A stretch of DNA of 64,000 nt from an uncultured Candidatus Saccharibacteria bacterium (GCA_964479005.1 CAYZJA010000001.1:96001-160000), one strand, 5' to 3'; positions 32,271 through 57,800 are shown, numbered from the stretch's first letter. Program-made: numbers and translations. The notes: generated by a model not told the origin, from the letters alone.

Positions 32271-33047
32271 GTGCTTACAAAATTTATTCAAAAATTGCGA
32301 AAAAAGAATAATATGACGCAGGAATTTTTGGCGTCCGAGTTGAATATCTCTCGTCCTACTTATGTTCAAATAGAACAAGGCGAACGGGATTTAACTATCA
32401 CCGAAGCGGAAAAACTAGCTTCTATTTTTGGAATTTCTTTTGAAGATTTTAGACATGGAAAAGATTCTTCAATTACCGCAAAAATTGAAAAGAATAAAAT
32501 CAAACCAAAAATAGGAAAACAAGAGATAAGAATTAACGTCCCGCAAAAAAATCTTAAAAAATTTAAGGAAGTTTTACTTTATGTTTTGTCAAAAGTCGGC
32601 GGTAAATCAAATGTCGGCGAAGCGGTATTATATAAACTGCTTTATTTTATTGATTTTGATTTTTACGAAAAATTTGAGGAACAATTGATTGGCGCGACAT
32701 ATATTAAAAATCATTATGGGCCAACTCCTGTTGAGTTTAAAGCTATTATTGGCAATATGATTCAAAACGATGAAGTCGTAAAAGTTGAGGGAAAATATTT
32801 TAATTATCCACAAAGAAAATATCTGCCAGTTAGACGGCCAGATCTTAATGTTTTATCTGGACGAGAGATAGAACATATTGATGATGTTTTGGCGCGTCTT
32901 GCTGATAAAAATGCTAAAGAAATGGAAAATTACTCCCATGAAGATATTCCGTGGAAAACGGCGGAAAATGGCAAACCACTTTCCTACGAAAGTGTTTTTT
33001 ATCGTGACGAACGTTATTCTGTAAGAAATTATGAAGACGAACTTTAA
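32271..33047 (+). CDS. XRE-family HTH fused to a Panacea (DUF4065/SocA-like) domain; candidate PanA-type antitoxin
   Basis: N-terminal HTH_3 (TQEFLASELNISRPTYVQIEQGER); C-terminal KLLYFIDFDFYEKF...HYGP resembling DUF4065. Confidence 0.5.
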   Translation: MLTKFIQKLRKKNNMTQEFLASELNISRPTYVQIEQGERDLTITEAEKLASIFGISFEDFRHGKDSSITAKIEKNKIKPKIGKQEIRINVPQKNLKKFKEVLLYVLSKVGGKSNVGEAVLYKLLYFIDFDFYEKFEEQLIGATYIKNHYGPTPVEFKAIIGNMIQNDEVVKVEGKYFNYPQRKYLPVRRPDLNVLSGREIEHIDDVLARLADKNAKEMENYSHEDIPWKTAENGKPLSYESVFYRDERYSVRNYEDEL

Positions 33048-39212: not shown

Positions 39213-39926
39213 ATGAAAAGGAAGTTAGTTATAGTTTTTGTTTTGTTTATTTTAGTGCTGAGTTTTACTCCAATTTTGAAACACTGGTCTTCAGAATGGG
39301 AATTGAATGCCCCAGTGTTATTGGATAGCGTTCAATTATCGAATGATTGCCGTATATTGTTGGGATCGTATTATTCAAGCGGGGTGATTTATCAGGATAA
39401 TTCTTTTGAATTTATTACTCATTCATCTGATGTGTTTTCTGATGTAAATGGTTTTAGGCCCTATCCTTGGGGAGGAGAAGTGTTTTCAGGAGAAATATCT
39501 TTTTTATGTTCCCTTGATAATTATACAGGATTCAGATCATTTATGATCCAGGGGAAACAGAAAGATGATCATGGCGCCATTGCTGTTCCTGGTTTACTGT
39601 CAAAACCAAATGTAGAATCAGGAGAATTATATTATCTATCGTTTTGGGTGAAATATGATATTCAAGAAGGAGGATTTAGGCTTACACAACAATTCTTTCG
39701 TAAGCAAGACAGCGAATATCCTCATTATGCTTGCTATGGTTCTTTGATTAAAGGTAATAGTAATAAACGCTGGGAGTATGTAGGTTTAATTGTTCAGGCA
39801 CCAATTGATGCTTGGAAAGGAGATCCAGTATTAGAATTGAAAGGCAAGGGATTTGTTTTAGTTGATGATGTTTATTTCGGAAAGATAGAAATAATAAAGG
39901 AGGTGAATAAAGGTGAGATTCTTTAG
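39213..39926 (+). CDS. secreted/membrane-anchored hypothetical protein, first gene of the EPS module
   Basis: Strong SD aaggagg; signal anchor; beta-rich composition. Confidence 0.4.
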   Translation: MKRKLVIVFVLFILVLSFTPILKHWSSEWELNAPVLLDSVQLSNDCRILLGSYYSSGVIYQDNSFEFITHSSDVFSDVNGFRPYPWGGEVFSGEISFLCSLDNYTGFRSFMIQGKQKDDHGAIAVPGLLSKPNVESGELYYLSFWVKYDIQEGGFRLTQQFFRKQDSEYPHYACYGSLIKGNSNKRWEYVGLIVQAPIDAWKGDPVLELKGKGFVLVDDVYFGKIEIIKEVNKGEIL

Positions 39927-41196
39927 AAAATTAGGTATTTTTTCTTTTGAGGATTTTGTCTATGCCGGTTCTACTTTTGTGCTCGCGATGTATGTCATTT
40001 GTATTCTTGTAATTACTCTTTTCCAAATAACAGGGCAATCAGTAATTTTTAGCAGCCGTTTTTCACTCTGTTCTTTGGACATTCAATTTCCTTTTTTCTT
40101 AATTATTTGCATCATCCTGATGTATTTGAGTATGTTTATCTGGATTTTTATGGGATTTGCAGGTATATTTTATAGAAAAAAGGTAGATTTGAAGCAAGAA
40201 GATGATTCTACTCTAATATCAGTTCTTATCCCTGCGCATAATGAAGAAGATGTTATAGAAGGTATTTTGGGAGATTTAGTAGCGCAAGAATATAAGAACT
40301 TAGAGATTATCGTATTAGCTCATAATTGTACTGATTCCACAATATCCAGAGCGCAATCAGTAGATGATTCAAGGATTCAAATATTGGATATAAGAACTCG
40401 TAAGTCAGGAAAAGCATTAGCCCTTAACAGAGGATTAGAAGAAGTAAAAGGAGAAATTATTGCTCTATTTGATACTGACAACAGGATAAAAGATAAAAAA
40501 TTCTTTAATCGAGCAATAGTATATTTCAGAGACGAAACCATTGATGCTATCCAAACCGAACTTGCTACAAGTAACAGATCTGCTTCTTTGTTGACTTTTC
40601 TTCAGGAAGTAGAATATGATACTTTCTCTTCAATATCCTGGCGTGGTAGGGATGTTCTAGGTCTTCCTTGTTTTTTAGCAGGAACAGGTATTTTTATCCG
40701 AACAAAAACCTTAAGAGAGATGGGTGGATGGAAAAATTCCTTGGTGGAAGATTTTGAACTTTTTACTAGATTGACTTTGGAAAAGAAGAAGATAGTTTTT
40801 GCTGATAATCTTGTTGTTTATGATGAAAAACCGCCATCTTGGAGTGGAATAATGAAACAAAGATCACGTTGGATAAAAGGTCATTTGAAGGTTACTTGGG
40901 ATAATCTAGATAAGTTTGGAAATTGGTTGGACTATATTTATCGCTTGACTCCTTTAGCTGTTTTTGCATGGTGGGCATCAAATTTCCTATACTGGTTTTA
41001 CTATCTAACTGGCCAAATTTCTATTTTTAATGTAACAGGATGGATTTGGTTAAGTTGGACTTTTGCCTTCTTTGCTCTTCCTACTTATAATAGTATAAAA
41101 AAACGCAGTTGGAAAGGGGTTTTATTTTTGCCTGTTTATTGGTTCTTTGTTTTTCACTTGCTGTGGGCAAGTTTATACAGTTTAGGAGTGAAATGA
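39913..41196 (+). CDS. processive family-2 glycosyltransferase (polysaccharide synthase; cellulose/chitin/PNAG-synthase-like) with flanking TM helices
   Basis: GT-A fold motifs LISVLIPAHNEE and DTD (LFDTDNR), processivity motif QRSRW, multiple C-terminal TM helices. Confidence 0.8.
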   Translation: MRFFRKLGIFSFEDFVYAGSTFVLAMYVICILVITLFQITGQSVIFSSRFSLCSLDIQFPFFLIICIILMYLSMFIWIFMGFAGIFYRKKVDLKQEDDSTLISVLIPAHNEEDVIEGILGDLVAQEYKNLEIIVLAHNCTDSTISRAQSVDDSRIQILDIRTRKSGKALALNRGLEEVKGEIIALFDTDNRIKDKKFFNRAIVYFRDETIDAIQTELATSNRSASLLTFLQEVEYDTFSSISWRGRDVLGLPCFLAGTGIFIRTKTLREMGGWKNSLVEDFELFTRLTLEKKKIVFADNLVVYDEKPPSWSGIMKQRSRWIKGHLKVTWDNLDKFGNWLDYIYRLTPLAVFAWWASNFLYWFYYLTGQISIFNVTGWIWLSWTFAFFALPTYNSIKKRSWKGVLFLPVYWFFVFHLLWASLYSLGVK

Positions 41197-42353
41197 AACT
41201 TAGTAGGGAAATTGTAATAACGATTATAATTTTAATCTTTTTATTGGTATCTTTATCCGAATTTGGAGCAACTTTTTATTCTTCTATATCTCAAAAGCAG
41301 AAAAGTAGTAATTATATTTACGATGAGAAAATTATAGTTATAGATGAGAAAGTTATAGAAGATGAAAGACAGGAGATAGAGAATATTCAAATCAGTTTTA
41401 GAGGAATAGATTTCTATCCTGATCCTTATCCTTATTCTACTTCAGAAGCTTTTGATGCCTTAGAACAGCTCCTTAATTTTCAGGGAATGAATTATGTCCA
41501 ATTACGTTTTTTCCTAACTCAAGATTCTCTTACTTCCAACAAAGTGGTTTATGATGAAAAACAAGATATTACTCTAGAAAGCATGATTGTTATGATTCAT
41601 CAAGCAGGAAAGAGAGTATCATTACTGCCTGATATTATCATTAAAACAGGGGATTATGTAGCTAGTCTTAGTCCTGAAGATATTGAACAATGGTTTGCTT
41701 CTTATTATGATGCTTTAATGCACTATGCTATTTTGGCGCAGACATATGATGTAGAATTATACTGTATCGGTAATGAGCTTCATTCTTTATGGATAGAGGA
41801 TCAAAAATGGAGATACATTATTGATAAACTGAGAGAGCAATACAAAGGTTTAGTCACTACTAAACTTAACTGTTGGTGGCAGGAAAAAACATTCCAAAAA
41901 GTATTAACTTATGGTTGGCTGGAAAAACTTGATTATATTGCCATTGCTCCATATTTTGATCTAACGTGGGAAAATGATCTTTCTTTAGAAGAAATAAAGA
42001 GCAGCTGGCAGAATAGTCGTCATGGACTTAATATAGTAGCAGAATTGGAAGAAATCGCTAAAAAATATAAAAAAAAGATGATTTTTTCAGAGATTGGTTA
42101 TAGAAGCATTGATGGAACTACTATTGAACCTTGGAATAGTGATTCTATAGTACCTCGTTCAGGAGGAAGTGGTAAGATTGATTTAGAAGAACAATCCTTA
42201 GCTACTCAAGCTTTATTTGATGTTTTCAAAGATAAAGATTGGTGGGGAGGAGTATTCTGGTTCTATTGGCCGACTGTTAAACCAAATGAACAAGATAAAA
42301 CATGGGCTATATGGAATAAACCAGTACAGCTGGTTATTCAAAATAATTTTTGA
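41193..42353 (+). CDS. membrane-anchored clan GH-A-like glycoside hydrolase (TIM barrel; GH5/GH113-like)
   Basis: ATGA overlap with the GT2 gene; candidate catalytic pair IGNE ... FSEIG about 140 aa apart. Confidence 0.45.
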   Translation: MKLSREIVITIIILIFLLVSLSEFGATFYSSISQKQKSSNYIYDEKIIVIDEKVIEDERQEIENIQISFRGIDFYPDPYPYSTSEAFDALEQLLNFQGMNYVQLRFFLTQDSLTSNKVVYDEKQDITLESMIVMIHQAGKRVSLLPDIIIKTGDYVASLSPEDIEQWFASYYDALMHYAILAQTYDVELYCIGNELHSLWIEDQKWRYIIDKLREQYKGLVTTKLNCWWQEKTFQKVLTYGWLEKLDYIAIAPYFDLTWENDLSLEEIKSSWQNSRHGLNIVAELEEIAKKYKKKMIFSEIGYRSIDGTTIEPWNSDSIVPRSGGSGKIDLEEQSLATQALFDVFKDKDWWGGVFWFYWPTVKPNEQDKTWAIWNKPVQLVIQNNF

Positions 42354-42355
42354 AA

Positions 42356-42390
42356 CAAAGGGGAAGATTAATCTTCCCCTTTTATTTTTT
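42356..42390 (+). terminator. rho-independent terminator
   Basis: aaaggggaaga-ttaa-tcttcccctttt then T-run. Confidence 0.65.
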
Positions 42391-42486: not shown

Positions 42487-42680
42487 TTGACAAGAAAAAA
42501 AAAGTTTGCTATTGTGTTTTCACGGTGGGGCTTTTATTTTAGCCCCGCAGTGGGGCTTATGAATAATATTCAAAAAAGGGGATTTCATAATTTAAACAAA
42601 ATTTCTTTTCGATTTCTTGCGTTTAGTAAAATTGAAAAAGAAGTTTTTTGAGGTTGGCGTTTTTGCGCCAACTTTTTAAT
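42487..42680 (+). ncRNA. candidate promoter-to-terminator non-coding unit (~160 nt): promoter TTGACA-17-TATTGT at 42487-42515, terminator 42653-42680
   Basis: Same gGACTTGACAAG...GTTTGCTAT promoter architecture as the sRNA modules; hairpin GGGGCT...AGCCCC; only a weak 29-aa ORF inside. Confidence 0.3.
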
Positions 42681-42735: not shown

Positions 42736-43998
42736 ATGAAAAAAATAATAACAATTTTAAGTACTTCCCTTTTGATGTTTGCTTTTGTAACTTCAGTTTC
42801 CGCAGCAGCTCCGAATTGGAATGTCAGTGGAACATGGATGGCAGAGCATGAGTTCGGGGGGAATACTTACTCTCATGTAAACAACATTGTTCAAGCACTA
42901 GACGGTTCCCTGACGGGGACCGGAGGATGGGATGGTACGCAAAACGGCATCCCCGTTGGTACTCCTAATACATGGGAGATAACCAACGGTTCGGTTTCTG
43001 GTAACAACATTCAATTTAACTACCAATACAATACCGTCGAGTTATGCGCCAAGGATGGAGGTATTGATGCAGTAATTAATGCTGACGGTTCTATGACTGG
43101 AACATGGCATGATGATTGTGGTACTGGACGAACTGGCGCATGGACAGTCCCAGCAGGTTCCGCAGTCTATTTAAGAACTGCAGAAATTACTTCTCCAACA
43201 TCAGGAGAAGAAGTTTCGGGAATGGTTTCATTTGATGCAATACTAACTGACAAAGATGGTGATGATAGTGTTCAATGGGCAGTTCGTCAGGGTACTTGCA
43301 CTGCAGGAATAGGAACAGTGTTTGGTAATGTAGATGGTAAATCAGATATCTACACTTGGGATCATGTCAATTTCCATGCATCAGCCGATACTTCTTCCTG
43401 GGCTCCTGGAAATTACTGTTTTGTCTTTAATCCCACAGAGAGTGCTGGAGATATAGCTATTAGAGAGACACGAGAGTTTATCCTAAAAGACACTGTAGCA
43501 CCATTGGTAACGATAGAAAGTCCTAGTGAGGGTGATGTTGTTTCTGGTACAGTTGAAATTTATGGAACTGTTGTAGAATACTATATGCTAAGTCACTACA
43601 ATATCTCGGTTTATCCAGGTGATGCCGACTTTAATGATTTCAGCAAAAGAATAGCTCAAGCAACTATTTATCGCACTACGGGTTTTAGTAATGAATTAAT
43701 TTTCGCATGGGATTCAACTGGATTTGAAGATGGCGAGTATCTAATTAGATTAGCTGCTAGAGACGCTGCTGGTAATCGTAGTTATGATGGCGATGCATAT
43801 CTAGGTGGTGATGATTCACAGCATGTGATTAGAGTAACTGTGAATAATATACCAGACCTAATTGGTCCACCGATTAATAAAGATCAATGTAAAAAAGATG
43901 GTTGGAAGATATTTGATAATCCAAGTTTTAAGAATCAGGGAGATTGTGTAAGTTATGTCCAGAGTAATGAAAATGCAAAAGGAAATAAAAATAAATAA
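42736..43998 (+). CDS. secreted protein with Ig-like beta-sandwich domains (GC-richer composition)
   Basis: Signal peptide ...SVSAAAP; TVAPLVTIESPSEGDVVSGTVEIYG is Big-like; Lys-rich tail. Confidence 0.45.
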   Translation: MKKIITILSTSLLMFAFVTSVSAAAPNWNVSGTWMAEHEFGGNTYSHVNNIVQALDGSLTGTGGWDGTQNGIPVGTPNTWEITNGSVSGNNIQFNYQYNTVELCAKDGGIDAVINADGSMTGTWHDDCGTGRTGAWTVPAGSAVYLRTAEITSPTSGEEVSGMVSFDAILTDKDGDDSVQWAVRQGTCTAGIGTVFGNVDGKSDIYTWDHVNFHASADTSSWAPGNYCFVFNPTESAGDIAIRETREFILKDTVAPLVTIESPSEGDVVSGTVEIYGTVVEYYMLSHYNISVYPGDADFNDFSKRIAQATIYRTTGFSNELIFAWDSTGFEDGEYLIRLAARDAAGNRSYDGDAYLGGDDSQHVIRVTVNNIPDLIGPPINKDQCKKDGWKIFDNPSFKNQGDCVSYVQSNENAKGNKNK

Positions 43999-44023
43999 AA
44001 AATAAATAAAAAAAATAAAAAAT

Positions 44024-45772
44024 ATGAATAAACAATTATTCTCTAAAACGATTTCACTTTTCTTAGTTTTTTCTTTGGTGTTCGTAGGTGTTTCAATATT
44101 TTCACCAAATAATATTGAAGCTAAAGGACAGAAACCAAATAACAAAATATCAATTTGTCATAGAACTAGTTCTGCTACTAATCCTTGGAATGTAATTAAT
44201 GTTAGTGTTAATGCTCAAGATGCTCACTTAGCTCATGGAGATTTTCTTTATGAAGGTAGTTATCCAGTGAATTCTAAAGAAGCAGAGGAATGGTGTGGCA
44301 TGACTAGATATACTTGTAATGAAAGTACTTGGCAATGTGTAATTGATAACCAAGGTCAATATTCAAGTTATGATGATTGTTCAACTGTTTGTCAGGAACC
44401 AATGGCAACTGTAACAATTTGTAAATATGACGAAGAAAGGAATCCTTTAAGTGGATGGAAAATGATTTTGAAAGGGGATTTGCAAGACCAAGTAACTGTT
44501 TTTCCTGATGGGTCAGCATATTTGTCAGGAGATTTACCATTAGAAGATTATTTATTAATGGCTTCTGGTCAATATGTTTATAGGCCTGGAACTTTAGGGG
44601 CTGAATATTCTGATGCTGGCTATACTAAGAGGAATTGTCCAGGAGATGCTACTTATTTATGTAGTGGTCCCTATACCCCATGGTTTAATGTTTTTGATAT
44701 TATAGGTATTCATAAAGGATGGTTGGGGATTATGGTTAATGACGCCGCAACTAATTGGGGTTCTTACTTTAACTCTGCTCATACTTATGCTCTGGGATAT
44801 CCTAATTATAGTGGTTCATTATCTTTTACAATTAAAGATGATGTGTATAGTGATAATTCAGGACAATTAAATGTTGATATTTATAAAGGATATACTGGGG
44901 AGACAGATGAAAATGGTTGTATAACCTTTAATGATGTTCCTTTGGAAACTTATTCTCTTGAGGAAATTCTTAAAGATGGATGGCAAAATGTTAGTGGTTT
45001 AGGACAGATTGTTATTGATGAATCTCAAGAAACTTTTGATGTGATTAATAGTGAAATTAAAAGCGAAAAAGAACTAGCATGCATAAATTCAGGTGGCACA
45101 GTTGGAACAGGTATATGCTGCAAAAGTGTAGAAGGTTTTCCAAATGATTGTGCTACAGGAGCCTGCGGTTGTTCTGCAGGAGATAGCCATGAAGTTCAGG
45201 TTTGTAATTGTCCAGCAGGCAAATGTTTTGATGGAAATTCCTGCGTAACAAAATGTGAAGAAGGAATTAATCTTCTTAAAAACGGTAGTTTCGAATATCC
45301 GGAAGTAACTAATACAAGCAAATGGCAGTTATTTCCATCAGGGACAGCTCTACTTGAATGGGTAGTTGGATGGGTTAGCGCTGCTCCATCAGACCCTCCA
45401 ACAATTGAAATACAGAAAGGCGTAGTAGTTTCTCCTAGTAATGGACTTCAAAGCATTGAATTAGATTCAGAAGCTCCAACCTATATTTCTCAAGCAGTTA
45501 ATACAGAATCTGGCTATGGATATAAATTAAGCTTTGATTTTGCAGCCAGGCCTAATACTTCAGAAGAAGATAATAAATTAGAGGTTTGGGCTGATAGTAT
45601 TCTTAAAGATAGTATTAGCAGCAATACATCTTGGCAAACAAAAACATATAATTTTAATGCTACTTCTAACCTTACGGAAATCAAATTCGTGGATATAGGA
45701 ATTCCTAATACCGATTCAATGGGTACATTATTAGATAATGTTAAATTAGAATGTGTTCCGCCGGTTCTGTAA
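44024..45772 (+). CDS. secreted multidomain protein, shorter paralogue of the 1440-aa giant: Cys-knot module, ~210-aa prealbumin/CnaB-like tandem domain, C-terminal jelly-roll-like domain
   Basis: Signal peptide MNKQLFSKTISLFL...; the TVTICKYDEER...ETFDVIN block is >60% identical to 1440-aa residues ~810-1020; C-terminal NGSFEYPEVT...LDNVKLECVP matches NGDFESPEVT...LDNVSVRCVP. Confidence 0.5.
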   Translation: MNKQLFSKTISLFLVFSLVFVGVSIFSPNNIEAKGQKPNNKISICHRTSSATNPWNVINVSVNAQDAHLAHGDFLYEGSYPVNSKEAEEWCGMTRYTCNESTWQCVIDNQGQYSSYDDCSTVCQEPMATVTICKYDEERNPLSGWKMILKGDLQDQVTVFPDGSAYLSGDLPLEDYLLMASGQYVYRPGTLGAEYSDAGYTKRNCPGDATYLCSGPYTPWFNVFDIIGIHKGWLGIMVNDAATNWGSYFNSAHTYALGYPNYSGSLSFTIKDDVYSDNSGQLNVDIYKGYTGETDENGCITFNDVPLETYSLEEILKDGWQNVSGLGQIVIDESQETFDVINSEIKSEKELACINSGGTVGTGICCKSVEGFPNDCATGACGCSAGDSHEVQVCNCPAGKCFDGNSCVTKCEEGINLLKNGSFEYPEVTNTSKWQLFPSGTALLEWVVGWVSAAPSDPPTIEIQKGVVVSPSNGLQSIELDSEAPTYISQAVNTESGYGYKLSFDFAARPNTSEEDNKLEVWADSILKDSISSNTSWQTKTYNFNATSNLTEIKFVDIGIPNTDSMGTLLDNVKLECVPPVL

Positions 45773-45878
45773 GTTATAAATAATATCCGGCAATTACAAA
45801 AGAAAAAGTTGATAGGATTTAATGGCGAATTAACCGTTCATTTTAAATAAAAGATTAAAAAGTTAAATATATAAAAAA

Positions 45879-48800
45879 ATGAAAAAACAATTTTTCTCTA
45901 AAACATTTTCAATTTTCTTGGCACTTTCTTTTGTACTTTCTAATAGCGCAATGTTAGTGCCATTACAAGCTGAAGCTTGTGAGGAAGAAATATGCGAAGA
46001 CGTTATTGTGGTAAGTAATATAGAAGATAAGGTTTTTGATATTGCAGAAACTCTTCCCGGTGAAGCAGCTGTTCTTGCTTGGGATGATCATCCGGCATGG
46101 ACAGCGTATATTGAAGGCGCAAATTGGATTTGGAAGACAGAATATGTAGAAAATCCTGATCAAGACGAAACATATATATTTAAAAAAGATTTTGATATTG
46201 TTGGCATTCCAGATTCTGCAACATTAAAAGTTGCAACTGATAATTCGTATAGTGTTTGGGTTAACAATGTTTTGATTGGAGAAGTTATAACTGAAGATAA
46301 TCACAGTTCAACAACCCAAGATCAATATAATAATATCGTTGACTTTCATACCGGTTCAAATGAAATTAAATTTGAAGTTAAAAACTGGGCAGGAAATGCG
46401 TCACCGAAATTAAATCCTGCAGGTCTTTTGTATAGACTTGAGATTGTAAGATCTTCTTGTGAACCTCAATGTATACCTCAATCTTCTATAGAAACAGACT
46501 GTACTAATGGTTTAGATGATGACTGCGATGGTTTTATTGATAGTGAAGATTCTGATTGTCAGATGTTAATAATGGCTTCTAAAGTAATTTGTGATAATGA
46601 ATCAGATTTACCTAATTGGGGGACAGGATCTGGAGTTGACTATCCTTCATATAACATTGATCAAAACACAGCTTCGGATTATGTAGCTGAACATTCTGGT
46701 TGTTATTTAGCTTCTAATTGGTTTTTTCAATGGGGACAACAAGGTTCTGATGATTTTGGAAAAGACTTTTATGGAGAAGCTGGCAATGGCTACACTACTT
46801 TTGGGCCAACAAATGAAAATGGAGTAGCTAGTACAACAGTGGATTCTGTTACCGGTAGTTATTTGGAATTAAGGGAAGTTCTGCAGCAAGGTTATATTCC
46901 TTTTACGTATGACCAATCACATAAATCTAATGATAATAATATTTCTGCAGAATTTTATTGCCACAATGATATTCTCAATTATGATAACTGGGATTATATA
47001 AAAAATCCTCAATTAGGAATTACTCATTATTGCGTTGGATTTAATGCATTAATCGAACAAGAAGAACCAGAACCTGTTTGTGGAAATGAAATTATAGAAA
47101 CTGGTGAACAATGTGATCCACCTTCAACCACTGCTCCTAATTCTACTGATGAATATTTCTGTGACCAAAATTGTAATTTAGTTCCTATCTATCATTCTCT
47201 GGATGGTTGTCCAAAAAATCAAATCCTAGAATTTATTCAGTCTTATCAAATTCATTCAACTAGTACGACAGAAGTTATTATTCCTGTGAGTGGTAGCGAT
47301 ACATATAAGTTTGAAGTTAAAGGAACTTTTTATCCTACTCAAAATGGAAAAAATGAGAATTTCCTATCAGATGCCGCCTATACGACTGAAGATGGCTGGG
47401 TTTCAACTTCTACAAAATACGGAATTAAAGGCATACCACCTGATTATGCTGCCCATGCTTTATTAGGTGATTTAGGATTAGGGGCTGGAGTAATTAATTG
47501 GGGAGATTATGATTCTTCTCATGAATATGATTTCTCTTACACAATTCCTTCAGGCGCTACTTCTACTCAATTTGTGATAGGTGATAGATGGGATAATTGG
47601 TTTATACCAGATGATATTAGTTGGAATAATCAAGGCGGAATGAAAGATAATCTTGGAAATTTGACTTTAGATGTTTATGAGTGTAAGCCAATCCAAGCTA
47701 GATGTGATCCTAAGTTAGAATTAGTTATGAATGGCGATTTTGAGAGTCCTGAAGTGACTGATCTAGTAAAAAAATGGGGTATTTTTCCATCAGGGACAAC
47801 CGATTTAGAATGGTTAATTAATTGGAGAGAAATTTGGCCTTCAGCACCAAAAATAGCAAATCTTGAAATTCAGAAAAGTTATTATACTCCAGTAATAGCT
47901 CCTGTAGTTCCTGGAGATCCAGATCAATATGCTGAGTTAGATACTGATTGGCATGGTCCAGGTGGACCTTCTGGTGAACCAGCCTCAGTAGCTATTTCTC
48001 AAGATATTCCAACAATTATAGGGGAAACTTATAGATTAAGTTTTGATTTTTCACCACGACCATATACTGATTTAGAACAGAATCATTTAAAGGGTTTTGT
48101 TGATAGCGCTGAATTATTTGATATTTCTGCTGATGGTTCTGGTTTAACAGATACTTTATGGAATCAATATTCTGATAATTTTGTTGCTACAAGTTCAATA
48201 ACAAACATTAAATTTACTGATTATGGTACACCAGACTCTTTAGGCACTTTCTTAGATAATGTTAGCGTAAGATGTGTTCCTCAGGACGAACCTACTATGT
48301 ATCATTGTAATGAGGAATGGCAATGTATAGCAGATCCTGAAGGTGAATATAATACTGATAATTGTGACAATCAATGTATTAAACCTGGAACATCCACAGT
48401 TACTATTTGTAAATATAATGAACAAGAAGAACCTTTAAGAGGTTGGAAGATGATACTTAAAGGTGATAGGTATGATACAGTGCCTGTTTTTCCAGATGGG
48501 CAAAATTATTCTTCAAATCCTTTGCTATTAGGTGATTACTTAATTCAGGCTTCTGGTCAATATTTATATAGACCAGGAACACCTGGCGCTGAGTATTCTG
48601 ATGCTGGCTATACTAAGAGGAATTGTCCAGGAGATGCTGATTATTTATGCAGTGGAGATTATACCCCATGGTTTAATGTTTTTGATATTATAGGTATTCA
48701 TCAAGGATGGTTGGGGATTATGGTTAATGATAATCTTACTGATTGGGGGTATTTTACTTCTGACCATACTTATACTCTTGGCTATCCTGGTTATAGTGGT

Positions 48801-50201
48801 TCGTTCACTTTTACTATAAAGGATGATGTATATTCAGATAATAGTGGATCATTAACAGTTAAAATCTATAAAGGCTATGTAGGGGAAACTGGAGAAAAAG
48901 GATGTGTTACATTTAATGGTGTTCCTTATGGCGAGTATATAGTTGATGAAGATCTTCAAAGTGGTTGGATAAATCAAGATGGTTTAGGAAATGTTACAGT
49001 AGATGACCTAGAAGAAACATTTGATGTTGTCAATATTCCACCAGAAGGACAGATAGGTTCTTTAACTGTTTGTAAATATAGAGATCACGAACCATTTGGG
49101 GAATACAATACAGGTATTGATACACCTCTAACTTGGGAGATGAGAATTATTGGACCTAATAGTTATGATCAATTGTACGAAACTGATCCTCAGAATGGAT
49201 GCAAAACAATAAATAATTTAGAATATGGCCAATATGTAGTTTCTGAAGAATTGAAGATTGGTTGGGATCAAACTTATCCTCTTGATCCTAATACCCATAC
49301 CATTGATATAAATGGCGGTAATTCTAATCCATCAGTATATTTCTTGAATTATAAAACAATTGATAATGGTGGAACAAAATATGCTTGTAATGCAGAAGGG
49401 CAATGTATAGAAAATGAAGGGGGTAATTATACCACTTCTAATTGTGATGAAGAATGTAGACCATATCCATATACTTGTAATTCATCTACCTCAGAATGTG
49501 TACGTGATGTTCATGGCCAATTTGGTTTATTGCAAGGTTGTGAGGATGCTTGTAGGGTATCTACTCCATTAGGAGGTCAATATGCAATATTGGGAACAGT
49601 TTTGGGTGCTGCTACTGAAAAGGAAGAAGAACCTTGCGGTCTTTATCTTTTGGAATACATAAAGCTTGGAGGTGATAATAATCCTGAGGAAGTGAAGAAA
49701 TTACAATATTTCTTAAATGAATATCTTGGCATTAATTTAGAGATAACAGGAGTTTATAATCAAGCTACTTATCAAGAAGTTATGAGATTCCAGCTTCTTT
49801 TGAACGATGAAATTTTGGCTCCTTGGGTTGAAGTTAATTGTCTTCCATCTAGTAATATAGCTACTGGTTATGTTTATCGAACAACACAATGGAAAATAAA
49901 TATGATTGTTTGTCCAGAATTGAACCTTCCAGTACCGAATTTATATGATGAAACTTGTAAATATATTAGTCTATATCCAGGAGAAGGTGTAGTTGCTGGA
50001 GCAGCTACTTCTACAGTGGGTGGAACTAATGGAACTACCACAACTACCTCAACTACAACTCCTGAAACAATAGGAGATACTACAACAACTGTTCCTCAAG
50101 ATACTGGGGATGAGCAGTCACAAAATTGGATTTGGGTTTTGATTGGACTTTTAGTGATTGGCGGCGCAGCTTATTTGGTTTATCAAACTAGACAAGTATA
50201 A
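45879..50201 (+). CDS. giant (1440 aa) cell-surface protein: signal peptide, Cys-rich Myxococcus-type repeats (CGNEIIETGEQCD), a metal-binding-like CTNGLDDDCDGFIDSEDSDC, two prealbumin/CnaB-like blocks, a jelly-roll-like domain, a PG_binding_1-like domain, a Thr-rich linker and a C-terminal TM anchor
   Basis: Motifs read directly; C-terminus ...TTTTSTTTPETIGDTTTT...NWIWVLIGLLVIGGAAYLVYQTRQV. Confidence 0.55.
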   Translation: MKKQFFSKTFSIFLALSFVLSNSAMLVPLQAEACEEEICEDVIVVSNIEDKVFDIAETLPGEAAVLAWDDHPAWTAYIEGANWIWKTEYVENPDQDETYIFKKDFDIVGIPDSATLKVATDNSYSVWVNNVLIGEVITEDNHSSTTQDQYNNIVDFHTGSNEIKFEVKNWAGNASPKLNPAGLLYRLEIVRSSCEPQCIPQSSIETDCTNGLDDDCDGFIDSEDSDCQMLIMASKVICDNESDLPNWGTGSGVDYPSYNIDQNTASDYVAEHSGCYLASNWFFQWGQQGSDDFGKDFYGEAGNGYTTFGPTNENGVASTTVDSVTGSYLELREVLQQGYIPFTYDQSHKSNDNNISAEFYCHNDILNYDNWDYIKNPQLGITHYCVGFNALIEQEEPEPVCGNEIIETGEQCDPPSTTAPNSTDEYFCDQNCNLVPIYHSLDGCPKNQILEFIQSYQIHSTSTTEVIIPVSGSDTYKFEVKGTFYPTQNGKNENFLSDAAYTTEDGWVSTSTKYGIKGIPPDYAAHALLGDLGLGAGVINWGDYDSSHEYDFSYTIPSGATSTQFVIGDRWDNWFIPDDISWNNQGGMKDNLGNLTLDVYECKPIQARCDPKLELVMNGDFESPEVTDLVKKWGIFPSGTTDLEWLINWREIWPSAPKIANLEIQKSYYTPVIAPVVPGDPDQYAELDTDWHGPGGPSGEPASVAISQDIPTIIGETYRLSFDFSPRPYTDLEQNHLKGFVDSAELFDISADGSGLTDTLWNQYSDNFVATSSITNIKFTDYGTPDSLGTFLDNVSVRCVPQDEPTMYHCNEEWQCIADPEGEYNTDNCDNQCIKPGTSTVTICKYNEQEEPLRGWKMILKGDRYDTVPVFPDGQNYSSNPLLLGDYLIQASGQYLYRPGTPGAEYSDAGYTKRNCPGDADYLCSGDYTPWFNVFDIIGIHQGWLGIMVNDNLTDWGYFTSDHTYTLGYPGYSGSFTFTIKDDVYSDNSGSLTVKIYKGYVGETGEKGCVTFNGVPYGEYIVDEDLQSGWINQDGLGNVTVDDLEETFDVVNIPPEGQIGSLTVCKYRDHEPFGEYNTGIDTPLTWEMRIIGPNSYDQLYETDPQNGCKTINNLEYGQYVVSEELKIGWDQTYPLDPNTHTIDINGGNSNPSVYFLNYKTIDNGGTKYACNAEGQCIENEGGNYTTSNCDEECRPYPYTCNSSTSECVRDVHGQFGLLQGCEDACRVSTPLGGQYAILGTVLGAATEKEEEPCGLYLLEYIKLGGDNNPEEVKKLQYFLNEYLGINLEITGVYNQATYQEVMRFQLLLNDEILAPWVEVNCLPSSNIATGYVYRTTQWKINMIVCPELNLPVPNLYDETCKYISLYPGEGVVAGAATSTVGGTNGTTTTTSTTTPETIGDTTTTVPQDTGDEQSQNWIWVLIGLLVIGGAAYLVYQTRQV

Positions 50202-50373
50202 ATATCAGACAAGATTGAATCAAAAAACAGTGCTGATTTAGCATTTTTTGCGTCAATTTTTAGTAGTTGGACCTAAATATGAAATTTAGGTAGTAAAAAC
50301 TAATAGGTCGATCTTTGGTAAAAACCAAAGTAAAAAAATCAAAAATAACAAATTAAATTAATTAAAAATTAAA

Positions 50374-50889
50374 ATGAAAAAGATATTAATTGGTTTAACG
50401 ATCATTACATTGGCTGCAATGGTTGCTAGTCCTGCTATGGCTTACTACTGGCCAATGCCAATGGAATCCAGTGACGTAACAGTCAATAATGATAGTTACT
50501 CGAGGATTCGCAATAACGTAACAGTTGTTGCTAAAACCGGCGATAACACTGCTAATACTGGCTCGGCAAGTTTCGGTGGTTTGGGTAGTACAATTCAGAC
50601 TGGTAATGCTGTCGCTGAAGCGACAGTAGTAACTGTTGCCAACACAAATTACACCAGAATTAAGGCTCCTTGCACTAATTGCGACGGCGATGTCACTGTT
50701 AACAATGATGATAGTGACGCTTTTGTCAGGAATAGAGTTAGGGTTATTGCCGACACCGGCGATAACACTGCTAATACTGGCTCGGCATGTTTAGGTGGTG
50801 AGGGTAGTTTGATTGTAACAGGCAGTGCATGGGCTGAAGGAAATGTTGTTACTGTTACTAACACTAACATAACCAGAATTCGCAGATAG
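50374..50889 (+). CDS. secreted protein made of two ~62-aa copies of a novel TGDNTANTG/NTN repeat
   Basis: Signal peptide; VTVNNDSYSRIRNNVTVVAKTGDNTANTGSA...VANTNYTRI repeated as VTVNNDDSDAFVRNRVRVIADTGDNTANTGSA...VTNTNITRI. Confidence 0.5.
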   Translation: MKKILIGLTIITLAAMVASPAMAYYWPMPMESSDVTVNNDSYSRIRNNVTVVAKTGDNTANTGSASFGGLGSTIQTGNAVAEATVVTVANTNYTRIKAPCTNCDGDVTVNNDDSDAFVRNRVRVIADTGDNTANTGSACLGGEGSLIVTGSAWAEGNVVTVTNTNITRIRR

Positions 50890-50958
50890 TAATTGATTGT
50901 TATGAACAGGAAGGGGGTTCTTTGTCCTCTTCCTTGCATAAGCCCTTAAAAGATTATT

Positions 50959-51549
50959 TTGAGGGCTTATGCAAGGGATATTAAAAAATCAAATATGAAA
51001 AATCAAATATCAAAAATTCCGGTTTTAGTTGCTTTTCTGACAATTATTCCGTTAGTTTGCGGGGCTTTTTCCTTTGAAGAACCTTTTGATGATTTTGAAG
51101 AATGGATTTCGGATCTTAGTGATGGAATGAGTAGTACTCATATAATAAATGAAGTTAAGGTTTTAACAAATACTGGCAATAATGTAATTAATGGCGAAAT
51201 AACAGAAGGTGAAGCAAAAAGCCGGATTTTTATTAAAAACGTTATTAATGGAAAAGAAATAGACCCAATTGAGATTGAATCTGATAAAAACGAAATTAAA
51301 GTGGAAAGCCAAATTAAAACAGAAAATGGCAAAGTTATTATTCAGAGAGAAATTCAAATTGATTCTGAAAAAAGCACTGAAAATTATGAGGTTGATTTGG
51401 AAAATTCAGAAACTGAGACAGAAAGTGAAGGAATATTGAAAGACGGTTTAGATTCCTTTCAAGAAGGATGGTTAGATTTTATCGAAGATTTAAGGTCTTT
51501 TTTTGACGATATCTTTAATATTTTTAAATTAAATGCAAGAATCAAATAG
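50959..51549 (+). CDS. secreted acidic protein with one degenerate TNTGNN repeat (true start probably MKNQISK at 50995)
   Basis: Signal peptide IPVLVAFLTIIPLVCGA; VKVLTNTGNNVINGEITEGEA; 17-nt overlap with the next gene. Confidence 0.4.
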   Translation: MRAYARDIKKSNMKNQISKIPVLVAFLTIIPLVCGAFSFEEPFDDFEEWISDLSDGMSSTHIINEVKVLTNTGNNVINGEITEGEAKSRIFIKNVINGKEIDPIEIESDKNEIKVESQIKTENGKVIIQREIQIDSEKSTENYEVDLENSETETESEGILKDGLDSFQEGWLDFIEDLRSFFDDIFNIFKLNARIK

Positions 51550-54163
51550 ATTAAAAAACTTTATTTTAATTCCTTTGCTAATCATAAGTTTGGTAGGTTT
51601 TAATTTTTATCCCTTTTTGGTTTTTGCAGAAGGAGATGGAGTTGTCACCGAAGGAGTAGTAATTGAGAATAATGAAGACACGCAGATTGTTACTGGAGAT
51701 TCTAATACTGAAGTTAATCTTGAAAACACTGTAAATTCTAATCTTACCGAATTAAACGGGGATGATTCTTCAGACGGAGAATCAGAACCTCTTGAGAATT
51801 TAGAATGTGAGGAAATTGATGTTACTACTTCAAGCACTGATGTTGTTTTTAATATTGCCAATGATAATGAGGCAGAAGTAGAGAATAATATCGAGACTGA
51901 GGAAGAAACTGGAGATAATGAAATTGATCAAAGTGAAGGAGATGCCATCATTGACACCGGAGATATAAATTTAGTCGTTGGCGTAGTTAATACAGTCAAC
52001 ACTAATGTTACTGGTTCTGATTTTTCTCAGCTTTTGTTAAACGTTTTTGAAAATTTAGAAGAAGATATTGATTTATCTGACCAATTAATGGGAATTTCTT
52101 CTTTGGAAAATTGTTATTCACCAATGGAATGTTTTGATCTTAATATTGTTAATGATAACCAAGGAAGTATTGAAAATAATATTTTAGTTGATGCATCAAC
52201 TGGCGAAAATACTGCCCAGAGTATTGATGGAGACGCAATCATTAAGACCGGTAACGCTAATGTTGCAGTTAATGCTTTAAATATTCTCAATACCGATATT
52301 ATCGGCTCAAACTGGACTCAGCTTATTATCAATGTATTTGATAATTGGACTGGCGATTTAGTTTTTCCCGGAAAAGGAAAAATGCAAGGATTTTTAAATC
52401 AAAAACCGCGCTCCTGTGAAGGAGATTGTGGAGATACTAATATAGTTAATTCTAATGAAGGCGAGATTGAAAATAAAGTCCATGTTCAGGCTAATACTGG
52501 CGAAAATCAATCTAATGGAAATTCAAGTATTATCCGCACTGGCCAAGCTAATGCTGAAGTTAATCTTTTAAATATTGCCAATACTAATTTATATGATAAG
52601 AATTGGTTTTTTGTAGGAATTAATAATTTTGGCAACTGGAAAGGAAATGTATTTAGTTTGCCTCCTGGTTTGGAAATGTCAGGAGATTCTAATAGTGTTC
52701 AAATTTATAATCTTGAACTAGAAGATGTTAATAATCCAACAGAAGATTTTGATAATAACACCAGTGGTAATTCTTTGAATATAGTCAATGAAAATACCGG
52801 GATTATTAAAAATAATATTATAGTTAATCTTTCGACTGGCGAGAACTCAGCTATTTCTTCTAACGGTCAGACAACGATAGAGACCGGAGATGCCAATACC
52901 CTAACTAACATTGCCAATCTTTTAAATTCAAATATTGTCGGCAGTAATTGGCTTTTGGGAACTGTAAATATTTTAGGAGATTGGAATGGAGATTTGGCTT
53001 TTGGCCGTCCTGATAATTGGATTGGTGGGAGTGTTGCCTCTTCTCATAATCCGGTTTCTCCTGGAGAAACTATAACTTATACTTTGACATATATTAACAA
53101 TGGGGATGCTGATGCTACACAAGTAATGATTATTGATGATTACGATGAGGCGCATCTTTCTATTATAGATACAGGTGGTGGAATTATCATTGATAATCCT
53201 GGCGAGATTCAGTGGGACATTGGAACAATTGCAGTAGGCGGTTCCGGTTCAGTTTCTTATTCTGCTGTAATTGATCCAGAAGTACCTTATGGTACTACCT
53301 ATCTTACTAATCAGGCGACAATTGATAGTTTTGAAGAAGATTTTAATAATGAAGATAACATTGAAATTTTATCAATTGAAGTGTATAGACCTTTGCCAGT
53401 TGCTTCAGTTATGTTGGGTTTTTCTTCTCCCTCGTCTTCGCCAAAATTGGAAATTAGCAAAACTCACAATGTAGATGATTTCGTTTATTCAGGAAGCGAT
53501 GTTGATTTTAAGATAGTGCTATATAATGATAGCGATAGTTCTGCTTATGATGTTGTCGTTTATGATACTTTACGGAACGATGCATCTGAAGCGATCAGTA
53601 CTTCCCATTGGGATTTGGGAGAAGTTTTCCCTCACGAAGAAATAATTATTGACTATACGGCAGCCATAGGTTCTGAGTTTCCAGCCGGCTTTTATACTAA
53701 TATAGCTGAGGCTCTAGGTTTTGATAGCCAGGGAAATCCAGTTAGTTCTCCTGAGGCCTCTAGCACAATTGAGGTTAGGGCGGCAGAAGTTCCTCCTGAT
53801 GAAACAGAGGAAGTGGAGGAAATTTCTCTTGAGGAGATAGAAAAGGAATTAAAAGAAATGAAAGACAAGATAAGAAAAATAAGAGAAGAGATAGAAAGAC
53901 TTTCTCATCCGTCTCCAGTCGAAGAATTTACAAGTTCTCTTCCAAAACAATTAATATCAGAGGTTTTGGCTGCTGAAGAACCTTTTGTTCCCAAAGAAAA
54001 AATTAATTTGCCTGAAAGAGGTTTGGCTCCGTTGCTTTTGGCTAGCTTAAGAGAGATAGGGGGAACGGATTGGATGATGATTTTGGCCATTTTTTGCCTT
54101 ATTGGGTTAATTATAATTGGAATTAGAGAGTGGGAATTAATTCGAAAAAAGAAAAAGAGATAA
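51533..54163 (+). CDS. large (876 aa) surface protein: N-terminal TM/signal, four or five copies of the ~75-aa TGEN/NTN repeat, two DUF11-type domains, a Glu/Lys coiled coil and a C-terminal TM anchor with KKKKR tail
   Basis: Repeats NIVNDNQGSIENNILVDASTGENTAQS...TGNANVAVNALNILNTDI and variants; DUF11-like PVSPGETITYTLTYINNGDADATQV...WDIGTIAVGGSGSVSY. Confidence 0.55.
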   Translation: MQESNRLKNFILIPLLIISLVGFNFYPFLVFAEGDGVVTEGVVIENNEDTQIVTGDSNTEVNLENTVNSNLTELNGDDSSDGESEPLENLECEEIDVTTSSTDVVFNIANDNEAEVENNIETEEETGDNEIDQSEGDAIIDTGDINLVVGVVNTVNTNVTGSDFSQLLLNVFENLEEDIDLSDQLMGISSLENCYSPMECFDLNIVNDNQGSIENNILVDASTGENTAQSIDGDAIIKTGNANVAVNALNILNTDIIGSNWTQLIINVFDNWTGDLVFPGKGKMQGFLNQKPRSCEGDCGDTNIVNSNEGEIENKVHVQANTGENQSNGNSSIIRTGQANAEVNLLNIANTNLYDKNWFFVGINNFGNWKGNVFSLPPGLEMSGDSNSVQIYNLELEDVNNPTEDFDNNTSGNSLNIVNENTGIIKNNIIVNLSTGENSAISSNGQTTIETGDANTLTNIANLLNSNIVGSNWLLGTVNILGDWNGDLAFGRPDNWIGGSVASSHNPVSPGETITYTLTYINNGDADATQVMIIDDYDEAHLSIIDTGGGIIIDNPGEIQWDIGTIAVGGSGSVSYSAVIDPEVPYGTTYLTNQATIDSFEEDFNNEDNIEILSIEVYRPLPVASVMLGFSSPSSSPKLEISKTHNVDDFVYSGSDVDFKIVLYNDSDSSAYDVVVYDTLRNDASEAISTSHWDLGEVFPHEEIIIDYTAAIGSEFPAGFYTNIAEALGFDSQGNPVSSPEASSTIEVRAAEVPPDETEEVEEISLEEIEKELKEMKDKIRKIREEIERLSHPSPVEEFTSSLPKQLISEVLAAEEPFVPKEKINLPERGLAPLLLASLREIGGTDWMMILAIFCLIGLIIIGIREWELIRKKKKR

Positions 54164-56681: not shown

Positions 56682-56709
56682 TTGACTTCCTTAATAGATT
56701 GGCTATAAT
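56682..56709 (+). promoter_or_regulatory. promoter TTGACT-16-TATAAT for the Fic gene
   Basis: Near-consensus -35/-10; the ORF tool start (TTG at 56709) overlaps the -10, so the true start is probably ATG 56739. Confidence 0.45.
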
Positions 56710-56738
56710 TGGATATAGCTAATATAGCCAATAATCAT

Positions 56739-57800
56739 ATGGCAAGAAATAAACAATTTGATCAGAGAATAGAAAATATTCCTACAGAAATTTGGTCAAA
56801 GCTTATACAAATTGATGAATTAAAGGGGCAATGGATTGCCGGCGCTCGGTTGAGCCCACAAGTTTTAAACCACCTTAAGCGGTCTGTTTTGATTACTTCT
56901 ACTGGTGCCTCAACTCGTATTGAGGGAGCTCGGCTTTCTGACGAAGATGTTGAGAAATTAATGCGTGGTATTGATATTCAGAAGTTTACTGACCGTGATA
57001 AGCAGGAAGTAAAGGGATATTTTGAATTACTAGAAAATATTTTTGATTCTTGGAGATCGATTAAGCTTTCAGAAAGCGCTATCAAGCATTTTCACAAAGA
57101 GCTTTTGAAGTATGTAAAAAAGGATGAACTCCACAGAGGTGATTATAAGAAAACCGAGAATAAAGTTGAGATGATTGATGCAGCTGGTAAATCCATCGGA
57201 ACTCTTTTTGACACTACACCGGTATATCTTACCCCGAAAGAAATGCAGGAATTAGTAGAGTGGACCCGAGAATCTTTGGCTGAAAAAAAATCTCATCCAC
57301 TTTTGATTGTTGGTAATTTTCTTGTTGAGTTTTTACAGATTCATCCATTCCAAGATGGCAATGGCCGGCTTAGCCGTGTTCTTACAAATCTTCTTTTATT
57401 GAAAGAGGGATATTTATATATGCCCTATATTTCTCATGAGAAGCTGGTTGAAGACAATAAGCCGGATTACTATATGGCCTTACGCAGAAGTCAAAAGACT
57501 TTTAAGACAGATCACGAAGACATCACTTCGTGGTTGGATTTCTTTTTGACTATTTTATTGAAGCAGTCAAAGATGGCCGTTGAGCTACTCTCAAAAGAGA
57601 ACATTGAAAAACTTCTTTCAATGAAGCAACTTGCTGTTTGGGAGTATTTGCAAAAGGCAAAAGAAACTACTACCGGCGAGATTATCAGAGGAACCAAGAT
57701 TACACGGCCTACTGTAAAACAGGCTCTTAACAAATTATTGCGTCTCAAAAAAATTGAACGCATTGGGCTCGGTAGAAGCACAAGATATAGAAAATTATGA
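56739..57800 (+). CDS. Fic family protein (AMPylator type) with a class II N-terminal inhibitory motif and a C-terminal winged HTH
   Basis: Fic motif HPFQDGNGRLSR; STRIEGA fits (S/T)xxxE(G/N); C-terminal wHTH-like ...LLRLKKIERIGLGRSTRYRKL. Confidence 0.85.
   Translation: MARNKQFDQRIENIPTEIWSKLIQIDELKGQWIAGARLSPQVLNHLKRSVLITSTGASTRIEGARLSDEDVEKLMRGIDIQKFTDRDKQEVKGYFELLENIFDSWRSIKLSESAIKHFHKELLKYVKKDELHRGDYKKTENKVEMIDAAGKSIGTLFDTTPVYLTPKEMQELVEWTRESLAEKKSHPLLIVGNFLVEFLQIHPFQDGNGRLSRVLTNLLLLKEGYLYMPYISHEKLVEDNKPDYYMALRRSQKTFKTDHEDITSWLDFFLTILLKQSKMAVELLSKENIEKLLSMKQLAVWEYLQKAKETTTGEIIRGTKITRPTVKQALNKLLRLKKIERIGLGRSTRYRKL

Follow-up and report, generated by a model that had tools for sequence, protein, structure and literature searches.

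The DNA analysed here is a stretch of 64,000 nucleotides from an uncultured Candidatus Saccharibacteria bacterium (GCA_964479005.1 CAYZJA010000001.1:96001-160000; hereafter, the window). It contains six consecutive open reading frames (ORFs), all on the + strand, for proteins of 420, 582, 1440, 171, 196 and 876 amino acids (aa), which are named here by their lengths (p420, p582, and so on). The region is made of two adjacent and unrelated sets of genes, both for proteins that a Patescibacteria cell exports to its envelope through the Sec pathway. In set B (p171, p196 and p876), three genes form a conserved unit based on a previously undescribed beta module of ~65 aa, and set A (p420, p582 and p1440) consists of ordinary mosaic surface proteins of the lectin/adhesin type. 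An earlier, sequence-only reading of the window had located the same six ORFs at these coordinates, had described their products as secreted and had taken them for a single cluster of paralogues. The first two statements are correct, as each protein has a hydrophobic N-terminus with an AXA-like site after it. The third is not, since p582 and p1440 have domains in common, while p171, p196 and p876 share a different repeat that was missed in that reading.

A three-gene unit based on a small beta module

The relationship within set B was established through sequence comparisons among its members. For instance, p171 aligns to the N-terminal half of p876 (BLASTP E = 7e-13), and a single-module hidden Markov model (HMM), built on 116 copies, is matched twice in p171, once in p196 (i-E 8e-6) and 4.5 times in p876, and nowhere else in the window. 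The module, with the consensus ..N.N.A.V.N.V...A.TG.N.A..[variable Gly/Asn loop]..I.TG.A.A...V.N.VN.N.T.., is rich in Asn, Gly and Thr with alternating residues, and matches no Pfam or NCBIfam model and no PDB entry. Searches with a profile of p171 and its close relatives showed that at least 2,852 representative protein clusters carry it at E <= 1e-3 (1,586 at E <= 1e-10), with lengths grouped around 160-260 aa and 750-1050 aa. In the homologues of p171, each module contains long and variable Gly/Asn loops. The start codon of p196 is TTG; from the ATG at 50995 the protein would have 184 aa.

The architecture of p876 was modelled with AlphaFold2 from 80 homologues (mean predicted local distance difference test score, pLDDT, 81.6; predicted template modelling score, pTM, 0.64). 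In this model, four all-beta module units and two immunoglobulin (Ig)-like domains have a pLDDT above 90 and are followed by a 25-residue helix, a disordered segment and a transmembrane (TM) helix. Each full module unit is extended by a GSNW..IN.F..W.GDL hairpin. The Ig-like domains are of the CLIPPER/DUF11 type (PF01345), as they show both the profile match and a CnaA-like Ig fold; in the second of them, the conservation of K643, D678 and N723 is of 90% or more, and the first is devoid of the first-strand Lys. When the Ig pair was compared with known structures by Foldseek, the WxLIP structure 9i1y (E 2e-7), RbmA and transglutaminase barrels were recovered. The module region had no match in the PDB, where the p876 family profile only recovered a designed coiled coil, and sequence searches with p420, p876 and p1440 yielded nothing useful.

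Identical proteins are encoded on a metagenome contig of JGI (551,616 bp) and on one of NCBI. The window and the JGI contig are 99.95% identical apart from one 285-bp indel in p876 (window 51823-52013 vs L001 16135-16230), which corresponds to one 95-aa module unit, p876 having 876 aa in the window and 971 aa in the JGI contig. This difference is either a real variation in copy number or a repeat collapsed in one of the assemblies.

The order p171-like, p196-like, p876-like is kept on three homologue contigs, and a locus scan of species-representative genomes with a 23-sequence alignment allowed the observation to be extended. The scan found 131 loci, 80 of which were examined, and 67 of these, with at least 1.5 kb of upstream sequence, were informative. 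In all 67, a module-bearing ORF (<~500 aa), encoding either a p171-like protein or a module-tagged cargo protein, is located on the same strand, upstream of the p876-like gene. An ORF of at least 100 aa occupies the position of p196 in 44 of the 67, and many of these ORFs have in common with p196 an end of the type ..F..[IV]FS[IF]F. Additionally, several loci have two or three p171-like genes in tandem. This synteny spans at least seven named candidate lineages, with a divergence of 27-54% identity.

The cargo genes encode fusions between recognisable domains and the module. VWA proteins with a C-terminal module pair are found beside p876-like genes at four loci (Pfam E 1e-13 to 1e-16), DUF642/choice-of-anchor C proteins are tagged in the same manner, and, at locus L017, an N domain like that of p1440 (40% identity, E 1e-24) is followed by C-terminal modules. 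In these fusions the modules form the extreme C-terminus, which ends in ..N.N.TR[IV]RR, as in p171, and neither a TM helix nor an LPXTG motif comes after them. The module is thus a whole small secreted protein, the anchorless C-terminus of cargo proteins and the head of an anchored protein that is always adjacent and, therefore, it is most simply understood as a retention or assembly module.

In a related genome (L003, 10840-18660), a Peptidase_S8 gene comes after a p876-like gene, and next to it there are four Peptidase_M73 (TasA/camelysin-like) genes and one for a 168-aa SipW-like signal peptidase. This group is a candidate for a second, different fibre system in the same surface island.

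Proposed surface display and its alternatives

We propose that set B may constitute a non-covalent display system. In this model, p876 would be a type-I membrane protein that spans the wall with its linker and helix, with the Ig domains as a short stalk and the modules in a distal position. The modules would associate with one another, and p876 would serve at the cell surface as a scaffold on which p171 and p196 are docked non-covalently. The VWA, DUF642 or lectin-like heads that bear modules in related genomes would be docked likewise on p876, where they may bind ligands such as host glycans. To this reading, a two-set region in which set B is a module-docking display, we give about even chances. 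The S-layer or attachment role that had been suggested for the whole cluster is possible. A broader and less probable proposal is that the module is a self-associating display module, apparently confined to Patescibacteria, and that the p171-p196-p876 operon is responsible for the principal protein structure on the outside of these cells (a scaffold, or a lattice or fibre), on which host-binding VWA, DUF642 and lectin-like heads are carried. If true, this structure would be a core part of the envelope of bacteria of the Candidate Phyla Radiation (CPR) and of episymbiont attachment.

Several observations weigh against module docking on p876. The p876 modules carry an extra hairpin compared with those of p171 and the cargo proteins and, therefore, may not simply stack in a homotypic manner; alternatively, a wall polymer could be the direct ligand of the modules. 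The p171 monomer is poorly modelled (pLDDT 62.9) and has no match in the PDB, and the single-module HMM detects no module-tagged cargo protein in the window. Moreover, signal peptides and TM helices were judged from hydropathy and AlphaFold2 models. Finally, the vicinity of the two sets is not general, as DUF642 genes, or genes with the X1 domain of p1440 described below, lie within 7 kb in only ~8 of the 80 loci.

That a small secreted protein and a long anchored one, encoded side by side in 67 of 67 loci, contain the same module would also be expected from the main rival explanation, in which p171 polymerises on the p876 modules into surface fibres or the S-layer-like coat seen on CPR cells, p196 acts as nucleator, cap or chaperone, and the module-tagged heads co-assemble. 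Short and long chaplins, curli CsgA/CsgB and TasA/TapA follow a comparable logic. The tandem p171-like genes and the Asn/Gly/Thr-rich composition with alternating residues agree with this explanation, and the fact that the module is modelled well in p876 and poorly in the p171 monomer fits a fold that is completed on assembly. However, the long variable Gly/Asn loops inside the modules of p171 homologues speak against such a polymer, no sequence or structural match to the chaplin, curli or TasA families was found, and the codon usage of p171, being different from that of the ribosomal-protein and EF-Tu genes of this genome, gives no hint of very high expression. We regard polymerisation as rather improbable. 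It could also be that the products of set B are independent adhesins whose genes are adjacent through co-regulation only, the module being a stalk or spacer repeat or a wall-polymer binder like LysM or SLH. Repeat-rich Ig-like and beta domains are indeed common spacers in fibrillar adhesins (10.1101/2025.04.25.650565), and the difference in copy number between near-identical strains is of the kind seen in stalk repeats. By contrast, the modules of the cargo proteins are C-terminal with no anchor after them, those of p876 are distal to the stalk instead of lying between head and anchor, and synteny in every informative locus at such divergence is stronger than co-regulation usually maintains, all of which makes this weaker rival unlikely.

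In a rival that follows the sequence-only reading, the region would be a horizontally acquired island of paralogous giant proteins bearing a new, sortase-independent and enzyme-processed sorting signal; this is now largely refuted, and we consider it very improbable. Positions 42736-50201 had been described as clearly higher in GC and do rank at the top of 566 sliding 7.5-kb windows, but the rise is of just three points (35.3% vs 32.2% elsewhere). In p582 and p1440 the excess is found at codon positions 1 and 2, and GC at the third position (GC3) is 0.17-0.18, under that of nearly every comparison gene listed (0.19-0.34); their GC rise is, therefore, a matter of amino-acid composition. When synonymous-codon likelihood was calculated with the 30 other genes of the window as reference, p582 (z = +1.4), p1440 (+2.0), p196 (+2.0) and p876 (+0.1) were within or above range, that is, they use the codons of the genome itself. 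The GC argument consequently fails for the large proteins, and higher GC as a mark of horizontal transfer was ruled out for p582 and p1440 by their low GC3 and native codon usage. In favour of acquisition, p420 (GC 40%, z = -2.7) and p171 (GC 43%, GC3 0.355, z = -4.8) are outliers, neither resembling its neighbours. Their bias towards C-ending codons is absent from ribosomal-protein and EF-Tu genes, and high expression was thus discarded as the cause of the bias in p171. As for the origin of the proteins, the named homologues of both large proteins are Patescibacteria throughout (Paceibacterota/Parcubacteria and Nealson-, Nomura-, Giovannoni-, Zambryski-, Kaiser-, Taylor-, Ryan-, Portnoy- and Moranbacteria), and the few binning labels from other phyla in the locus scan are taken to be mislabels.

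The anchors themselves are as previously described: among the six proteins, only p1440 and p876 have a C-terminal TM helix, and regular expressions found no LPXTG, PEP-CTERM or PGF motif in the last 80 residues. LP.TG is absent from all six proteins; an LPERG that lies 17 residues before the TM helix of p876 does not fit a sortase signal, and nothing resembles GlyGly-CTERM, as the only GG within a TM helix is in the middle of that of p1440. What does not hold is a sorting signal shared by both proteins. Although close relatives of p1440 have the TM sequence NW[IL]W.LIG..VIGG..YLV in common, the tails of p1440 and p876 share nothing beyond an interfacial Trp, and 83 of 120 p1440 homologues are devoid of the helix. 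Anchor conservation is therefore restricted to the p876 family, which keeps its architecture over the full length, 90 of its 120 members having a TM helix in the last 80 residues that is followed, in 89 of them, by at least two Lys or Arg. Similarly, neither a cognate sorting enzyme nor any sortase, exosortase or rhombosortase-like gene was found in the scan of the ORFs from 25.6 to 63.5 kb, and no protein gave a Pfam or NCBIfam match to SLH or a comparable S-layer anchoring domain. Distant p876 relatives of ~750 aa (P0199-P0248) share a C-terminal TM motif, [IV]NLAW[LA]L..P, followed by basic residues, which looks more like a dedicated sorting signal than the tail of p876 does.

Among known systems, the closest logic to that of set B is that of the WxL clusters of Firmicutes (csc), in which a small protein is made of WxL only, larger ones combine WxL with binding heads, and the WxLIP has two Ig-like domains plus a TM helix (PMC10599100). 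Both have a small secreted protein made only of the module, headed proteins with a C-terminal module and a partner with tandem Ig domains and a TM helix, and it is to a WxLIP that the Ig pair of p876 was matched by Foldseek. By contrast, set B gives no Pfam match to WxL, DUF916 or DUF3324 at E <= 0.1, its module is an unrelated all-beta repeat, p876 itself bears four to five modules atop the Ig stalk, and its hosts are Patescibacteria. CLIPPER is a stalk domain of fibrillar adhesins that can hold an isopeptide bond (10.1101/2025.04.25.650565). With these adhesins p876 shares a signal peptide, a C-terminal anchor and a Lys/Asp/Asn set at conserved positions in domain 2, and it differs from them in having two stalk domains only, a head made of a new repeat, a TM anchor and a domain 1 that lacks the first-strand Lys. 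The chaplins of Streptomyces include the long, anchored ChpA-C, which carry a sortase signal, and the short, secreted ChpD-H. As in chaplins and in the curli proteins CsgA/CsgB, one domain is common, in set B, to a short secreted protein and a long cell-bound one, suggesting templated surface assembly; however, there is no sequence relationship, a TM anchor takes the place of the sortase signal, and amyloid formation is not in evidence.

The structure of the CPR envelope "remains unclear" according to genome reviews (PMC5220378). Epibiotic growth of Saccharibacteria, the only lineage in which genetics is tractable, requires lectin-like proteins of the envelope as well as an exopolysaccharide (PMC10633639), and in Vampirococcus lugosii a host-attachment role has been proposed for long membrane-localised proteins with DUF11, integrin or FN3-type domains (PMC8080830). 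This last report includes neither the module, nor the three-gene unit, nor a p1440 family terminated by a peptidoglycan (PG)-binding domain, and no description of the module, the unit, the cargo fusions or a CPR S-layer protein was found in the open-access literature. Set B provides a concrete and testable candidate for a surface-display system or coat in this phylum. The module profile is also a handle for the cataloguing of cargo, the module being present in thousands of protein clusters and fused to heads that can be recognised as binding domains. Set A adds little, as adhesin-like mosaic proteins are already expected in CPR, and both it and the TM anchors belong to known kinds.

Mosaic surface proteins of set A

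Most details previously noted for p582 and p1440 were confirmed. The common block, for which more than 60% identity had been claimed, is 62% identical over 281 aa (76.5% over 646 nucleotides of DNA), and its SpaA (PF17802) scores, 24.8 bits in p582 and 26.9 in p1440, are above the cut-off of 23.1, with the profile covered in part. The four-Cys modules (one in p582, three in p1440), the motif CGNEIIETGEQCD and the acidic Cys motif are all present. To call the two signal peptides near-identical was generous, as 10 of 14 residues match. The motifs NG[SD]FE.PEV and LDNV..CVP are present as well. For DUF642 (PF04862), p582 scores 52.0 bits against a cut-off of 27, and p1440 remains under it with 21.5 bits, yet its domain is 41% identical to that of p582 across the whole length. 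For choice-of-anchor C (TIGR04362), the scores of 75.9 bits in p582 and 51.8 in p1440 are both under the NCBIfam cut-off of 120. These two proteins resemble other DUF642/choice-of-anchor C proteins in the domain itself and, as the name of the NCBIfam model would suggest, the anchors of the relatives of p1440 vary (PG-binding domain only, PG-binding domain plus TM helix, LPXTG-like). They differ in their scores, under the subfamily cut-off, and in that the domain is located within Patescibacteria-specific mosaics that contain X1. In p420, a Big_7 match was obtained, and its central part has 57% identity with a DUF642 protein in L004, over the C-terminal half of the latter. The C-terminus of p420 (43786-43995) has a small Cys-containing motif, CKKDGWKIFDNPSFKNQGDCVSYV, and the N-terminus of p582 (44130-44230) another, neither belonging to any family. 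Overall, adhesin- and lectin-typical domains in Sec-exported envelope proteins of a CPR genome are borne out, and they resolve largely to the known families DUF642, SpaA, CLIPPER/DUF11 and PG_binding_1.

In p1440, Pfam and NCBIfam models detect SpaA, DUF642, an acidic double-disulfide repeat (weak MopE/acid_disulf_rpt), a weak DUF4215 and a borderline PG_binding_1. It has at least 309 homologues with highly mixed Pfam content (DUF642, PG_binding_1, SpaA, SdrD_B, DUF4215, TSP_1, VWA and others). Conservation is concentrated in three segments, the N domain (residues 1-200 in this comparison; 100 of 119 homologues), X1 (115) and the PG_binding_1-like domain (101), and the middle is shuffled, with DUF642 in 72 of the same 119, the p582-like block in 53 and X2 in 13. 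X1 is the most conserved part of the family, which comprises more than 100 large Patescibacteria surface proteins. Its consensus, KIVC..E.DLPNWG...REVL..GYIPF...SAEFYC..DVLNYDN...YYCVAFN, includes four conserved Cys, and K235, E333 and N389 are near-invariant. Its profile finds no match in the PDB or Pfam; the Lys, Glu and Asn lead us to guess that it might be a CnaB-like isopeptide domain.

The PG_binding_1-like domain that had been noted in p1440 is borderline, the isolated domain scoring 23.0 bits vs a cut-off of 23 over profile positions 3-38 of 57; many of the 120 listed homologues have a precomputed PF01471 match. A TM helix is found in the last 80 residues of 37 of these 120 homologues. 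In ~70 of them, judged by eye on the C-termini (49 by a strict regular expression), the protein finishes with the end of the PG-binding-like domain, whose motif is ..TGYVYKTT.R.IN.I.CP.L.LP.P.LP. As most proteins lacking the helix end in this way, the usual retention device is probably the putative wall-binding domain. The Thr-rich linker and TM helix of p1440 are common to only 12 close relatives; from these comparisons, the helix appears to be a lineage-specific addition and not a conserved sorting signal. A few homologues have sortase-type signals (GAPNTG or LPHTG), and some end in an aromatic amphipathic stretch. For instance, the helix is replaced in P0002, P0066 and P0117 by a short end of this kind (..SWFSNFSNWLRRLFGTSR, ..LKSFFQNIFNIF), comparable to that of the p196 family (window 51490-51546; gap ORFs of L006-L069), which could act as an in-plane anchor in the membrane or as a motif for recognition. 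In the model that we favour, p1440 would combine a conserved head (the galactose-binding-like N domain and X1) with a shuffled middle of DUF642, SpaA-like and small disulfide modules; it would be retained by the PG_binding_1-like wall-binding domain and reinforced, in this lineage, by the Thr-rich linker and a stop-transfer TM helix.

Coordinates and genomic surroundings

A terminator-like hairpin, followed by a promoter-like site, separates the cluster from the genes upstream (Table 1) and, therefore, the cluster is probably its own transcription unit, as far as a consensus scan can indicate.

Table 1. Location of the genes, protein domains and putative transcription signals (window positions; res, residues)
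Feature	Position	Strand	Description
Terminator-like hairpin	42357-42382	+	closes upstream GT2/GH113 unit; consensus scan only
Promoter-like site	42487-42515	+	precedes p420; consensus scan only
p420	42736-43998	+	secreted; Big_7-type Ig domains; C-terminal two-Cys motif; GC 40%; codon-usage outlier
p582	44024-45772	+	signal peptide; four-Cys module res 96-124; SpaA-like-ended shared block res 127-340; Cys-rich linker; DUF642/choice-of-anchor C res 416-575; no C-terminal anchor
p1440, whole gene	45879-50201	+	mosaic surface protein
p1440, N domain	45993-46478	+	res 39-200; rhamnosidase N-terminal/galactose-binding-like
p1440, X1 domain	46575-47054	+	res 233-392
p1440, DUF642/choice-of-anchor C	47694-48284	+	res 606-802
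p1440, p582-shared block and two SpaA-like prealbumin-fold domains	48393-49358	+	res 839-1160
p1440, PG_binding_1-like domain	49581-49928	+	res 1235-1350
p1440, Thr-rich linker and TM	49962-50183	+	linker res ~1362-1410; TM res ~1413-1435 (hydrophobic helix 1417-1435); tail QTRQV
p171	50374-50889	+	signal peptide; two ~65-aa beta modules, res 33-97 and 106-170, with C-x2-C between; end ..NTNITRIRR; GC 43%
p196	50959-51549	+	signal peptide; one divergent module res 58-121; acidic region; aromatic amphipathic C-terminus ..FFDDIFNIF
p876, whole gene	51533-54163	+	modules, two Ig domains, helix, linker, TM, basic tail
p876, N-terminal head	51665-53002	+	half module and four full modules, res 45-490
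p876, two CLIPPER/DUF11-type Ig domains	53015-53782	+	res 495-620 and 636-750 (639-749 in the AlphaFold2 model)
p876, helix, linker, TM	53828-54136	+	helix res 766-790; disordered linker 792-845; TM 847-868 (hydrophobic helix 846-864; 847-875 in the AlphaFold2 model); basic tail REWELIRKKKKR to stop at 54163

The window also contains core genes, such as a ribosomal-protein operon and the genes for RNase P RNA, MurJ and LepA. The ORFs that flank the cluster within the scanned 25.6-63.5 kb include genes for a family-2 glycosyltransferase (GT2), a glycoside hydrolase of family 113 (GH113), an SSF transporter, Fic and YchF, together with housekeeping genes. Immediately upstream (39213-42382) there are genes for a 237-aa unknown protein, the polytopic family-2 glycosyltransferase (39913-41196) and the GH113-like hydrolase (41109-42353), closed by the strong terminator; the latter two look like an exopolysaccharide synthase/hydrolase pair adjoining the surface-protein genes. 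Farther away, a helix-turn-helix (HTH) plus SocA/Panacea antitoxin-like gene lies at 32271-33047, a Fic-domain protein with an HTH at its C-terminus is encoded at 56709-57800, and a gene for a DUF4012 protein (25653-27344) adjoins that of MurJ.

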